A stretch of DNA of 39,644 bases from IMG/VR virus record IMGVR_UViG_2718218133_000003; one strand, given 5' to 3'. Below the pieces are notes generated by a model, which had not been told where the DNA came from, did not search any database, and saw only the letters and a list, made by a program, of their open reading frames with translations. This stretch comes from a virus. Lineage: Duplodnaviria > Heunggongvirae > Uroviricota > Caudoviricetes. This document shows positions 4,751-16,411 of this stretch, piece after piece. Position numbers and translations under genes: made by a program. The stretch's first letter is position 1; each line of letters begins with the position of its first letter.

Positions 4751-4808
4751 AAAAAGGGCGGCAGAGCAGTCACGGAGTAAAACTGATACCGCCAAACGTC
4801 ACCAGAAA
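4751..4808 (-). ncRNA. dicF: DicF small RNA (ftsZ-targeting) with intrinsic terminator
   Basis: Reverse complement reads UUUCUGGUGACGUUUGGCGGUAUCAGUUUUACUCCGUGACUGCUCUGCCGCCC followed by a U-tract; recognised from memory as DicF. Confidence 0.8.
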
Positions 4809-8872: not shown

Positions 8873-9139
8873 AGTGACGAGATTAAAGTGCATTAGTTCA
8901 GATGCAAATTGACATTTTGTGGCACAGGGTAGAGCTAGCGTGGTTGTCCGCTTTGTGCCAACAGCGGACATTATGGAAGGTCAGAGTTAAAGATTAAAAT
9001 GGGATGCTGTGTGTTTTCTCCAGGTTTTGCTCTATACCTTTCGGGATACTCCACCGACAGAATACGAAAATCAACATTATCAACGGCTCGAAGTGTCTAG
9101 ATTATCCATGGCAATTCATGGGAAATCCCATCCAACGGC

Positions 9140-10531
9140 TTATGCTTCATGTTGCTTTTTGAGATCGCTTCTAGCATAGCTCCACTCAATAATGTTGTCG
9201 GGTCGTTGCTGATCGAAAAGGATACGGGATTCAATACCATTACCTAAAAAGCTGGTATTCCCATCTACGTAAGAAGCTATCCCTTGTGAACCAACACGAA
9301 GAATATTTTCTAATGGCTGCTTTGTTCTTGCTGCATCGCTAAGGAGATATAAACCCGGGTACGTTTTGTTAGCACGGTGAAAAAAAAGTTCATTGTCAAA
9401 ACACATGACGATGATTATTTGTCCCGACATGAGATCGGAGAGCATTTCAGTTGGCAGATGCAAACTCATAAATGGTCGAGACAAAGGGTCAAAGAATGAA
9501 TCATTTATATTCACAACAGGGCTTTTTATACCGAGACTATCCATCCATCCATTGAAGGCAACAAAGCCCATTTCAGAATCACGGTACATACCTAAGAACA
9601 AACATTCATCAATAGTATCAATTGCCCAATTTTTTCCTCCGCGAATAATCTCCCACATTTTAACTAAGCGGTGGGTATAAAATTCAGACGGATGATCTAT
9701 CTCATTGATTTTAACTTTAGACTGATGAAAGTTGTCAAAGCCCTCGCCAGTATTAATCGCCTCCAGAACATTCATGCCACGAATGATTTGCCTTTTTATG
9801 CGATTAAATTGCTTAACATCATTATCAGGCATATTGTTAATGAAGTTTTCTTCAAAGTGCGGACATTCTGAGATAACAGAAAATTCAGCAGCTTCATAAA
9901 GCTCATTATTCTTTTCACCTGTTTTAACTTCCACGAGCTGGAAGCCATCCAGTAGATTAAAGGTGACTAAATCTCCCACATGAACAAATGTGCTCATGTC
10001 AGAGACAATCGCTACGGAGTGTTTGTCCTGGTTGATAAGATCGGCTGCGACCATAGAATCAATTATGTTATCTTCTGATAGATTGTCATTGCTTGCATTA
10101 ATAGGTAAACGCCGCAAACTAGAGTGTTCTTCATCAAGAATGCTCCAAATTATTGAGTCAATACAACGGCGAAGAATAAGAATTTCAAATTTTTTTAAAC
10201 TTATTTCATCAATACACTTTTCTTTATTTTCTTTATCCTTGTTTCGATGGTGCTCTTTTTTTTCAGTTTCCAATCTTTTTATATCTCTCAGCCGAATAAT
10301 AATCTCAAAAGATATGATTTTTTGTGAGTCTTTCCAATTTTTGAGACAGGTTTCATACTCTGCAAGAAAATCCTCATCATTGGAAGGTAGTTCTTGAATT
10401 GGATTCCCTCCCCTTATCATTTTGGCAAGTGCATGCATTAAAGATACATAATGAGGTGATAAAATTGTCCAAAACTTCCTAAACGGTTTGTACTTTTCAA
10501 GAAAAGTTGACTCATCAGTATAATTCATCAT
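9140..10531 (-). CDS. Hypothetical 463-aa protein, AT-rich, possible PD-(D/E)xK nuclease motif; candidate defence component
   Basis: ATG at 10531 with GAGG about 8 nt upstream; motif HVGDLVTF...QLVEVKTGE fits D...E.K; codon and base composition clearly more AT-rich than flanking phage genes. Confidence 0.6.
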   Translation of the reverse strand: MMNYTDESTFLEKYKPFRKFWTILSPHYVSLMHALAKMIRGGNPIQELPSNDEDFLAEYETCLKNWKDSQKIISFEIIIRLRDIKRLETEKKEHHRNKDKENKEKCIDEISLKKFEILILRRCIDSIIWSILDEEHSSLRRLPINASNDNLSEDNIIDSMVAADLINQDKHSVAIVSDMSTFVHVGDLVTFNLLDGFQLVEVKTGEKNNELYEAAEFSVISECPHFEENFINNMPDNDVKQFNRIKRQIIRGMNVLEAINTGEGFDNFHQSKVKINEIDHPSEFYTHRLVKMWEIIRGGKNWAIDTIDECLFLGMYRDSEMGFVAFNGWMDSLGIKSPVVNINDSFFDPLSRPFMSLHLPTEMLSDLMSGQIIIVMCFDNELFFHRANKTYPGLYLLSDAARTKQPLENILRVGSQGIASYVDGNTSFLGNGIESRILFDQQRPDNIIEWSYARSDLKKQHEA

Positions 10532-10620
10532 AACCAAACCTCATTCCTCTTATCTATTTTCCTCAAGGTATAAAATACCAGCCTTTTTTACATAATTATA
10601 GTTATAATATGAAGTCTCAT

Positions 10621-11490
10621 TCAGATATCTTCATACTGTACGTAAGAAATATTTGAGCCTCTGATACCATAATCTTCTAAACTGCCTGATTTTTTCTCAC
10701 CTCTATATAAAGCAACTATCCATCGAGCATTTTCTTGGATGCTTTTATTTATTTCAGTAAAGTATTCACCGTCAACTTCGGCGAGCGAGTGGCCTAAAAC
10801 GATGACCTCGTCCACATTTTTAAGCGATGAGAAAAAAACGTTTTCTTCTTTAATTATGTCTTCGCTGGGCTTGAATGTATTACCGAAGTATTCGTTTATT
10901 CTGTCGTATGCCTCTGCTATTCTTGTATCTTGATCCGGTCCTATATATGGATTTAGTGACTTTTCCACCCTAAAACTATGACCAAGTATGAGATCGTCAT
11001 CGTAACTACAATTGCCGTGAATATGTATGATTTGCTCGTCTGGAACGGCATAGATCTGCTGCAAGGTATTTGTATAATTAAATGAAAAATAGATGCTTTC
11101 TCTTGGTATGGGCGGGATGTATTGCTTAGGATTGTAAGCATCGGCTATGTTAATCCCTTTAACCCAATCAGCGAATTGCTCCTTCAAACGAGCTGACAGC
11201 ATTTGTGTGATTTTATTTACTTCATATTGGTAATCGTGATGATAAGCATCGCTCCAATCATCGGTATTGTATGAAGCCAAAAATATCTCACTGTTTTGAA
11301 GGATAAGCTCATAATCAATTTCACCTAAAGCATTTTCTAACTCATTCCACTCGTCCCCAGCAGGAATGTATTCTTCTATCGCGTCATATAGATCTTGGTC
11401 ATTTTTTTCTACATACGACTTAAAGTGCTTGTATCCTGTTGGTAAGCCATGACGCATGTCAAATCCATTTCCTATTATGTAAAGCCTCAT
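10621..11490 (-). CDS. AbiH-like abortive-infection family protein (candidate defence component)
   Basis: Start MRLYIIGNGFDMRHGLPTGYKHF matches the IIGNGFD..HGL N-terminal signature recalled for AbiH (Pfam PF14253); AAGGGA Shine-Dalgarno; AT-rich. Confidence 0.6.
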   Translation of the reverse strand: MRLYIIGNGFDMRHGLPTGYKHFKSYVEKNDQDLYDAIEEYIPAGDEWNELENALGEIDYELILQNSEIFLASYNTDDWSDAYHHDYQYEVNKITQMLSARLKEQFADWVKGINIADAYNPKQYIPPIPRESIYFSFNYTNTLQQIYAVPDEQIIHIHGNCSYDDDLILGHSFRVEKSLNPYIGPDQDTRIAEAYDRINEYFGNTFKPSEDIIKEENVFFSSLKNVDEVIVLGHSLAEVDGEYFTEINKSIQENARWIVALYRGEKKSGSLEDYGIRGSNISYVQYEDI

Positions 11491-12105
11491 TGTTTTTCCC
11501 TTAGTCGAATTGTATAAAAATACTAACATGGCCTGCTCCACGTTGACTACTATCCCCTCCTTTGAGTAATGCCTTCATCAGATGTAACAACATTTGCGAG
11601 CTTCCACAGTTCGCTCAAAGCGGACTAGAAGGTTAGCTTGCGTCGGACTTGGCGTATTTAAAGAAGTGCTGGTGGAGACTGGTTGTTGTGTTCCATTTCT
11701 ACAGAACAAAATCACAGAAACTATACCCAATAGTTATATTGAATCAATGATGAGACAGCCTCATATTTATCAGGACTGGTGTACGTCCAATACAGGAGGT
11801 TGTCGTGCTGGTTCTCAAATGTGCGCTAGCTATTGCGGCTGTAATGGCAATTTATTGTCTTGCTGTTGTTCTTACGGATCGCCTTTCTGATTGATTTTAT
11901 ATTGGCGAGGTGACGTGAGTTAAGTAGAATTGCTGCGGGTGCTTGAGGCTATCTGCCTCAGGCATGAACACCAAAGGCAGATAGAGAAAAGCCCCAGTTA
12001 ACATTACGCGTCCTGCAAGACGCTTAACATTAATCTGAGGCCAATTTCATGCTAGACACATGTAGGTTAGCCTCTTACGTGCCGAAAGGCAAGGAGAAGC
12101 AGGCT

Positions 12106-12261
12106 ATGAAGCAGCAAAAGGCGATGTTAATCGCCCTGATCGTCATCTGTTTAACCGTCATAGTGACGGCACTGGTAACGAGGAAAGACCTCTGCGAGGT
12201 ACGAATCCGAACCGGCCAGACGGAGGTCGCTGTCTTCACAGCTTACGAACCTGAGGAGTAA
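12106..12261 (+). CDS. hokD: Hok/Gef family type I toxin (HokD/RelF-like)
   Basis: 51-aa product MKQQKAMLIALIVICLTVIVTALVTRKDLCEVRIRTGQTEVAVFTAYEPEE; in-frame upstream extension to 12049 gives a 70-aa mok-like frame. Confidence 0.9.
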   Translation: MKQQKAMLIALIVICLTVIVTALVTRKDLCEVRIRTGQTEVAVFTAYEPEE

Positions 12262-15397: not shown

Positions 15398-15473
15398 GGC
15401 CCTTTAGCTCAGTGGTGAGAGCGAGCGACTCATAATCGCCAGGTCGCTGGTTCAAATCCAGTACAGCGCGCCA
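15398..15473 (+). tRNA. tRNA-like sequence (ileX/ileZ-like, anticodon CAU) with non-complementary acceptor stem; probable pseudo-tRNA
   Basis: D-arm GCTC-AGTGGTGA-GAGC, anticodon loop CTCATAA, T-arm GCTGG-TTCAAAT-CCAG and 3' CCA are present, but 5' GGCCCTT cannot pair with 3' ACAGCGC. Confidence 0.5.
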
Positions 15474-15937: not shown

Positions 15938-16411
15938 ATACATATCTGGATTATCACCTGTTACGGTAAAAAGTTATTGCTTACTGTTTTTGTGAATGGC
16001 ATTGCAGCAGCCGGATAATGTCAGTGCTGGCTGACGGTGTGCTGGTGGCGGGTGTGGTGGTTATTGCTTTCCCGTTGCTGAAAAAGAAAACGCCAGACTG
16101 TTAGCCGGGTATCAGTTAGCGGGAGAAATTTTTAAATACTTCACAATTCAGGCGGTTGACTGTTGTCTGGTTTGCGGGGAGTTTGTTAAAAGAAACTGGC
16201 ATGGTGAATCCCCCTGTGCGGAGGGGCAATCAGCGAGTAGGTATATGGGATAATCGCGGATTCAGGTGCTGGTACTGAATTCACCGGGAGGCACCCGGCA
16301 CCATGCACTTCAATAGATTCTCTCCACATTATGGATATTCTTTCAGAATATCCCACGCAGACTTTGTGTAAATGTTAACAAATGTGCGTTTTATTTGATC
16401 TGATTCGCTGT

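Follow-up and report, generated by a model that had tools for sequence, protein, structure and literature searches.

An AbiH gene and an orphan gene as separable cargo modules of an Escherichia coli lambdoid prophage, the orphan being a candidate single-gene defence family

Introduction

The virus record IMGVR_UViG_2718218133_000003 of IMG/VR (Caudoviricetes) provides a stretch of 39,644 nucleotides, hereafter the window, in which two adjacent minus-strand genes raise the question of whether they make up one two-gene anti-phage system or are two independent genes. According to the list of open reading frames (ORFs) of the window, the first gene, here called B (9140..10531, minus strand), encodes an orphan protein of 463 residues, and the second (10621..11490, minus strand) encodes a 289-residue protein of the abortive-infection family AbiH. 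The window is 100% identical at this locus to a prophage of E. coli MDR_56, where RefSeq labels B as 'hypothetical' (WP_000982358) and its neighbour as 'AbiH family' (WP_001297700). The original prediction regarded AbiH and its partner as an undescribed two-gene system, and named two independent genes as the alternative. Co-occurrence of the two genes fails in both directions and AbiH is an established stand-alone system, so the two-gene proposal is not sustained, and the separability of the genes makes the alternative the better reading. The locus is probably a composite of two autonomous cargo modules, a known AbiH and gene B, the latter representing a candidate single-gene defence family.

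Linkage and separability of AbiH and gene B

Within E. coli, the association of the two genes is linkage by descent: intact B was found in 64 and AbiH in 65 of the 5,426 complete genomes, all at >99% identity. Only partial AbiH matches were present in 51 further genomes. The two that were inspected (strain B2C, L002 4808-6566; strain C 236-04A, L003 5555-6232) hold 5' AbiH remnants cut by IS3/IS1-type insertion elements, and B is gone from both, suggesting that the cassette often decays. The same AbiH and B block is carried by IncFIB phage-plasmids of Enterobacter, Klebsiella, and Raoultella (93% DNA identity) and by very common lambda-P-type prophages of Klebsiella (88.5% DNA identity, 86% amino acid identity for B). 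Across these three element types, the spacer of 88-90 nt is ~90% conserved, similar to coding DNA, and the synonymous divergence (dS) is ~0.2 and equal for AbiH and B. Because block and spacer are conserved and dS is equal, the pair (~86-93% identity) moves as a unit within the E. coli, Klebsiella, and phage-plasmid clade. In Klebsiella pneumoniae, an HD/HD_assoc (dGTPase-like) gene and DinI adjoin the block (L060 1003-2364 and 6755-7300), and the dGTPase-like gene could add a third defence to the stack.

Beyond this block, AbiH is found without B. About 20 Providencia plasmids carry AbiH at ~91% identity without B, and tblastn gave no match to B in the genus Providencia; AbiH is likewise on its own in Pantoea and in two distinct islands of Morganellaceae, the copies being 87-91% identical overall when those of Providencia are included. 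The phage-plasmid hotspot that holds the pair itself also contains a 50%-identical AbiH without B. In the opposite direction, every examined homologue of B below ~85% identity occurs without AbiH. On a plasmid of Providencia huaxiensis (L025 5181-6635), a 484-residue orphan gene lies 298 bp after an AbiH of 91% identity. Its product has no Pfam or PADLOC match, and was ruled out as a divergent B (BLASTP E=1.1, hhalign probability 0.15%), making it another recurrent neighbour of AbiH.

Comparison with the AbiH-only locus of Pantoea (L068) resolves this separation to the base. In BLASTN, the AbiH-only loci align with window positions ~10600-11625 only. In L068, the AbiH stop codon is followed by 11 nt and then by sequence homologous to window 8946-9119, and because AbiH is thus joined directly to sequence lying downstream of B in the window, B is a discrete indel. 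The B module (spacer, B ORF, and 20 nt; 9120..10609, minus strand) is a precise indel of 1,490 bp relative to the Pantoea locus, and is bounded by an imperfect repeat, GACTTCA / GATTTCCCA. The shared 3' flank of the AbiH cassette (8945..9119, minus strand) is present in AbiH-only (Pantoea) and in AbiH plus B (Klebsiella) loci, with 73.6% identity to L068 4382-4578 and a position within the 88.5% block common to Klebsiella L060 (BLASTN). Since co-occurrence fails both ways beyond the ~86-93%-identical block and B is a clean indel, we treat AbiH and B as two independent genes.

The AbiH gene

The smaller protein, which had been called AbiH-like from its opening residues, is an unambiguous member of this known family. 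It matches Pfam PF14253 with E=6.6e-69 (233.3 bits versus a gathering cut-off of 30.9), residues 3-259 covering model positions 1-258 of 260, and is matched as well by the PADLOC AbiH model (E=1.3e-27) and by phrog_19951 (E=5.5e-181), in line with its RefSeq label. The Prokaryotic Genome Annotation Pipeline (PGAP) prefers an alternative start at 11529, giving 302 residues; the 289-residue start agrees with the Pfam and PHROG model starts and with the annotation in other species.

The N-terminus of AbiH reads MRLYIIGNGFD. Residues G7-N8-G9-F10-D11 (codons 11458..11472, minus strand) form a glycine-rich loop of the dinucleotide-binding type and are invariant in alignment A7, which comprises 28 AbiH homologues with identity down to 42%. 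Also invariant in A7 are N138-Y139-T140 of an FNYT motif, whose N138 (11077..11079, minus strand) is a candidate catalytic Asn, and H158-G159 of an IHG motif, whose H158 (11017..11019, minus strand) is a candidate catalytic His. The AbiH family has been assigned a Sir2-like fold (PMC13064643; bioRxiv 10.1101/2024.09.18.613514), and, following this literature (PMC13064643), the GNGFD loop would correspond to the Sir2 Rossmann loop, with catalytic roles for N138 and H158 suggested by analogy with Sir2 NADases. Searching the PDB sequences with the AbiH profile did not reach sirtuins, which is expected for so remote a relationship. AbiH has been reported to work as a single cloned, Sir2-like gene (PMC12322248, PMC13064643, bioRxiv 10.1101/2024.09.18.613514), the published single-gene activity being that in Lactococcus and S. 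thermophilus.

The ratio of non-synonymous to synonymous substitution rates (dN/dS) of AbiH was 0.17-0.28, indicating purifying selection; values for the Providencia and Morganella pairs were discarded as artefacts of a 4-codon length difference. The 5' region of the gene (promoter/leader; 11491..11625, minus strand), as delimited by BLASTN homology, travels with AbiH, and homology to the AbiH-only loci of Providencia, Morganellaceae, and Pantoea ends at window 11619-11626. A promoter scan upstream of AbiH returned a number of sites equal to chance expectation.

Gene B and its family

The larger protein had been described as lacking a recognisable family, and this is borne out by the libraries searched: searches of Pfam, PADLOC v2.0.0, NCBIfam, and PHROGs assigned B to no family, with 0 families at E<=1 in PADLOC-DB v2.0.0 (a library of 2023). 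No match to B was obtained in the PDB by single sequence or by the profiles of alignments A1 and A3, nor in a Pfam scan of 27 family members, and a literature search by the RefSeq accessions of B found no mention. B is therefore new to these libraries, in which AbiH is already known, and it may bear a name in newer catalogues.

The family is large. A word-indexed search with B gave 48 clusters from Enterobacterales and Aeromonas, and an exhaustive hidden Markov model (HMM) search gave 680 representative clusters (50% identity), of which 501 had E<=1e-10; nearly all of the 680 are ~450 residues long and matched over their full length. A scan of GTDB genomes yielded three loci, the peptide patterns used having been too narrow. 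Gene B is also under purifying selection (dN/dS 0.21-0.32). In four distant homologues (P0163, P0166, P0167, and P0183; 669-690 residues), an extra N-terminal domain of ~210 residues is fused to the B architecture; it reads GILAYGSLIDDPG...EYAR.S..R..PTLIPV...LWRRE and has no Pfam or PDB match, and its YGSL start may hint at a GGCT/ChaC-like fold. A 583-bp contig labelled Streptomyces plumbiresistens (L005) encodes a fragment 90% identical to enterobacterial B, and this is almost certainly a contaminant of the assembly rather than a gene of Streptomyces.

Alignment A3, with 69 B-family sequences reaching ~20% identity, contains only eight invariant columns: D178, D187, E201, K203, G205, R244, Q248, and P444. 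The first four, which are invariant in alignment A1 too, are the candidate active-site residues of B; their codons lie at 9998-10000, 9971-9973, 9929-9931, and 9923-9925, respectively (9923..10000, minus strand). The AlphaFold2 model of B (predicted local distance difference test score, pLDDT, 78.9; predicted template modelling score, pTM, 0.79) consists of a long N-terminal helical hairpin (residues ~52-132), an alpha-beta-beta-beta-alpha core carrying D178/D187/E201/K203, a long helix that contains R244/Q248, and an alpha/beta domain at the C-terminus. DSSP assigned helix 153-167, strands 172-176, 188-192, and 196-200, and helix 206-221 to the core, a region of low confidence in a truncated model. 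D187 precedes strand 188-192, and E201-x-K203 lies at the end of strand 196-200; in this model these are the places where the canonical PD-(D/E)xK core would have them, with D opening the second strand and ExK on the third.

It had been suggested that the larger protein carries a PD-(D/E)xK nuclease core. The sequence part of this suggestion stands: the HVGD...LVEVKTG motif is found in B as described, and the D...D...E-x-K set of acidic, acidic, and Lys residues is invariant in the 69 sequences. The fold part found no support, and several results weigh against a nuclease. Three fold searches with B retrieved no restriction-endonuclease-like structure, including a Foldseek search of the B model against the PDB that gave nothing significant (best E 0.22); Pfam and PDB profile searches showed no similarity of B to PD-(D/E)xK families; and hhalign comparison of the B profile with Mrr_cat and PDDEXK_4 proteins gave probabilities of <=0.1%. 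Because the fold, profile, and hhalign searches were all negative, the nuclease assignment stays at the level of motif and topology, on which the active-site layout of the model resembles a PD-(D/E)xK centre. We put the chance that B acts as a metal-dependent nuclease at slightly below even.

Genomic neighbourhoods of gene B

Away from AbiH, B is located next to other defence genes in several lineages. In Pantoea, Erwinia, and one further lineage, it follows Abi_2/PD-T4-5 at a distance of 16-25 bp; in Dickeya, it follows a DUF3644 plus restriction endonuclease system (PDC-S19) at 17 bp, and in Rahnella, it precedes a HEC-08-like HEPN gene. On a 609-kb plasmid of Bacillus cereus (L024 2060-5166), a B-like gene of 26% identity comes after a reverse transcriptase of the AbiK type (PADLOC E=1e-196); the B-like gene is split into three annotated coding sequences, and could reflect pseudogenisation or a sequencing artefact. 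In a chromosomal defence island of Aeromonas, B stands beside Gabija (GajA/GajB) and an Argonaute-associated (Aga) nuclease, 656 bp from the divergent Gabija. PD-T7-1 and PD-T7-5 are the other PADLOC-matched neighbours. Abi2 and DUF3644 are HEPN families (PMC3710099) and HEC-08 has been validated as a single gene (bioRxiv 10.1101/2024.01.29.577857); the families neighbouring B are themselves autonomous systems, validated or modelled as stand-alone.

B also occurs alone, namely in the gpU/tail-fibre and gpV/S junctions of P2-like prophages, in Yersinia and Ewingella, and on a MobA/H-NS plasmid fragment. P2-type prophage slots are reported hotspots of defence genes (Rousset et al., bioRxiv 2021.01.21.427644). 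On five IMG/VR prophage contigs (L046-L049, L052), B of 37-40% identity starts 11-36 bp past the stop codon of a tyrosine integrase on the same strand, which suggests a promoter-less cassette relying on read-through. Prophage defence genes also gather close to integrases and in the lambdoid replication/nin region. Altogether, on semi-quantitative evidence, B recurs in cargo slots of prophages, on plasmids, and beside no fewer than seven different defence genes already known. In about 8 of the 17 context classes, a known defence gene lies immediately beside it, a share that by our own estimate, not a computed statistic, is far above the expectation for random genes.

Alternative explanations

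B is regarded as a defence candidate because its family is wide, it is under purifying selection, its acidic/Lys centre is invariant, and it recurs in accessory slots, plasmids, and defence islands; judged from these sequence data, a defence function is moderately probable. The alternative that survives best, although an unlikely one, is that B is not a defence gene and instead represents a selfish free-standing (homing-like) nuclease or another accessory function (recombination/repair, addiction, or anti-defence) accumulating in permissive cargo slots. Some observations do weigh against defence in this way: many neighbours of B on viral contigs are ordinary structural and integration genes, PADLOC matches are a minority among the scanned neighbours (2 of 26 in one scan and 5 of 9 in another), and the lack of a PADLOC match for B itself fits novelty and a non-defence function equally well. 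The discrete indel with short flanking repeat-like sequence, the insertion of B right behind unrelated genes, and the invariant candidate nuclease residues would also suit a selfish nuclease, yet no target-site pattern and no intron or intein association was seen. Moreover, B resides on plasmids and in the chromosomal island with Gabija and the Argonaute-associated nuclease as well, and has defence genes at its side in the estimated share of contexts given above; its slots (P2-like tail/baseplate, integrase-proximal, and lambdoid replication/nin) are those where prophage defence genes cluster.

We consider it rather improbable that AbiH and B constitute an obligate two-gene system, in which an AbiH effector and B (nuclease or sensor) would work jointly and neither would suffice alone in this clade. 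Conservation of the block and of its 88-90-nt spacer in three kinds of mobile element (Qin-like prophages, lambda-P-type prophages, and IncFIB phage-plasmids) leaves room for functional coupling; the equal dS of the two genes, the lack of a terminator separating them, and their being essentially always together in the 64-65 E. coli genomes also favour such a system, and two-gene Sir2 systems such as Sir2-HerA and PD-T7-2 are known. This linkage is nevertheless limited to one recently spread DNA block. AbiH that is 87-91% identical lacks B in at least four other contexts, the examined B homologues below ~85% identity all lack AbiH, a lone AbiH gene has activity in Lactococcus and S. thermophilus, and B is a clean indel inside the AbiH cassette.

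The repeated tight placement of B downstream of Abi-type genes likewise leaves room for functional coupling. We give a similarly small probability to the proposal that the B family is a new widespread anti-phage module of unrecognised fold that forms a 'second layer' behind AbiH, Abi_2, DUF3644, and AbiK, sensing infection for them or backing them up when they are inhibited by phages; if B does dock behind diverse Abi effectors, this would be a modular design with a conserved partner and a variable effector, of a kind so far undescribed among classical Abi genes. Least probable is that B modulates diverse upstream single-gene Abi effectors as an add-on common to them, whether as sensor, regulator, or back-up effector. 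On the same strand, B does directly follow four Abi-type genes that are unrelated to one another (AbiH, Abi_2/PD-T4-5, DUF3644/PDC-S19, and AbiK; gaps of 16-89 bp), and a fifth, HEPN, gene lies just downstream of it in Rahnella. The lineages in which B is alone are, however, at least equally numerous (P2-like slots, positions next to integrases, Yersinia, Ewingella, the MobA plasmid, and Aeromonas near the divergent Gabija), its equally tight placement behind integrases (11-36 bp) argues for a promoter-less cassette over Abi-specific coupling, and the partner genes stand as systems of their own, whether validated or modelled. It is the close positioning of B on the same strand after unrelated genes, integrases among them, that keeps the add-on and selfish-cassette readings alive.

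Proposed functioning of the composite locus

In the composite reading, which we prefer, both modules would be expressed in the lysogen and stacked in a variable slot of a lambdoid prophage. AbiH would be a single-gene abortive-infection protein of the immune Sir2 ('SIRim') class, and, going by the family literature, would most likely sense infection and then deplete nicotinamide adenine dinucleotide (NAD+) or ADP-ribosylate a target through its Asn/His centre. B, which was inserted directly behind AbiH in the clade of E. coli, Klebsiella, and phage-plasmids, would most likely be an independent anti-phage effector, putatively a metal-dependent PD-(D/E)xK-type nuclease with D178/D187/E201/K203 as its candidate site, and its helical hairpin may serve oligomerisation or sensing.

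The two genes are probably co-transcribed from the AbiH upstream region. The spacer between them (10532..10620, minus strand) is 89 nt long, not 83 bp as first given, and holds the Shine-Dalgarno sequence of B (GAGG). No terminator-like site was detected between AbiH and B, the spacer RNA folds no better than shuffled sequence (z-score -0.54), and the structure of the 3' flank 8945..9119 is at chance level (z=0.06). A terminator or structured RNA in the spacer or 3' flank was ruled out on this basis, and co-transcription is plausible because no terminator-like site or non-random structure separates the genes. The outcome would be two defence layers from one transcript rather than a two-component machine.

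Comparison with known systems

The AbiH of the window resembles AbiH of Lactococcus lactis (PF14253; DefenseFinder/PADLOC) in its end-to-end model match, in keeping the GNGFD, FNYT, and IHG motifs, in its location on a mobile element, and in standing alone in sister loci. Unlike the lactococcal AbiH, which is chromosomal or carried by an integrative and conjugative element, it is enterobacterial and prophage- or phage-plasmid-borne, and has gained a second gene downstream.

B may be likened to single-gene PD-(D/E)xK defence nucleases (for example Shedu SduA/DUF4263 and Hachiman HamA/DUF1837-type cores). Like these, it presents a predicted D...D...E-x-K set on an alpha-beta-beta-beta-alpha element, has extra N- and C-terminal domains, and occurs as a single gene within defence islands and hotspots of prophages. 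As a pair, AbiH and B recall Sir2-HerA, PD-T7-2, and Thoeris ThsA/ThsB, in which a Sir2-class protein stands beside a larger second protein on the same strand. Those partners co-occur family-wide, unlike B, which is dispensable and swappable, and B gave no match to the HerA, PD-T7-2, or ThsB models of PADLOC.

Host prophage and cargo slot

The window contains, in order, an integrase, an exonuclease, dicB/DicF, cI/cro-like genes, YdaT, a replisome organizer, DUF977, the B and AbiH cassette, sok/hokD, DUF968, RusA, and Q, and this gene order, from integrase to Q, identifies a Qin/Rac-like lambdoid prophage of E. coli. The cassette had been described as two adjacent AT-rich minus-strand genes transcribed against the early-right operon, and both points agree with our findings. 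The ORFs exist, and their modules have a guanine-plus-cytosine content of 0.366 (B) and 0.383 (AbiH), compared with 0.518 for the flanking replication genes and 0.521 for the DUF968-Q genes (0.477 for the whole window), and the replication and DUF968/RusA/Q genes are on the plus strand, so that transcription is opposed.

The location in a prophage hotspot is also confirmed, as the B-AbiH cassette fills a variable cargo slot between DUF977 and sok/hokD. Sister E. coli prophages with the same replisome organizer and DUF977 carry different cargo in this slot and also lack P/DnaC. That of UTI89 (L027 5190-7169) encodes two hypothetical proteins of 320 and 333 residues and that of SM107 (L028 5145-5954) a single 269-residue minus-strand protein; none of these has a PADLOC match, and they represent further uncharacterised candidates. 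The claim that the cassette takes the place of the helicase loader had to be rejected: because the cargo differs in these sister prophages and the AbiH and B block of Klebsiella pneumoniae L060 lies opposite an intact lambda-P replication gene, the slot is a variable cargo position and no stand-in for the loader.

Directly upstream of AbiH and divergent from it are the sok antisense RNA (11937-12111, plus strand; Rfam RF01794, 119.9 bits) and the type I toxin gene hokD (12106-12261, plus strand). In Qin of E. coli K-12, the corresponding position upstream of hokD is occupied by relBE, and the slot is comparable to this and to the rexAB/sieB-type lysogen-expressed genes of lambdoid phages. It also resembles the P2/P4 hotspots of Rousset et al. 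in being an AT-rich cargo slot with opposite transcription and alternative contents in sister prophages, here beside sok/hokD. It differs from these hotspots in its content of AbiH plus the B family, undescribed in the papers and libraries searched. Other RNA genes of the prophage include the small RNA DicF (4756-4807, minus strand), adjoining dicB, the small RNA STnc100 (16170-16360, plus strand), and a transfer RNA (15399-15470, plus strand) labelled tRNA-Met by RefSeq.

Significance

The AbiH half of the locus is routine, and its E. coli copy would be a convenient model for demonstrating the proposed Sir2-like chemistry of the family. Recognising that AbiH and B are separable guards against cataloguing the cassette mistakenly as a new two-gene system. 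The value of the locus lies in B, a large unannotated family with a sharply conserved D-D-E-x-K centre and a confident predicted structure that has no PDB neighbour. If B protects, it would be a new single-gene defence family missed by common tools, including in prophages and phage-plasmids of clinical E. coli and Klebsiella, and would provide an example of prophages stacking defences through promoter-less cassettes placed behind existing ones.

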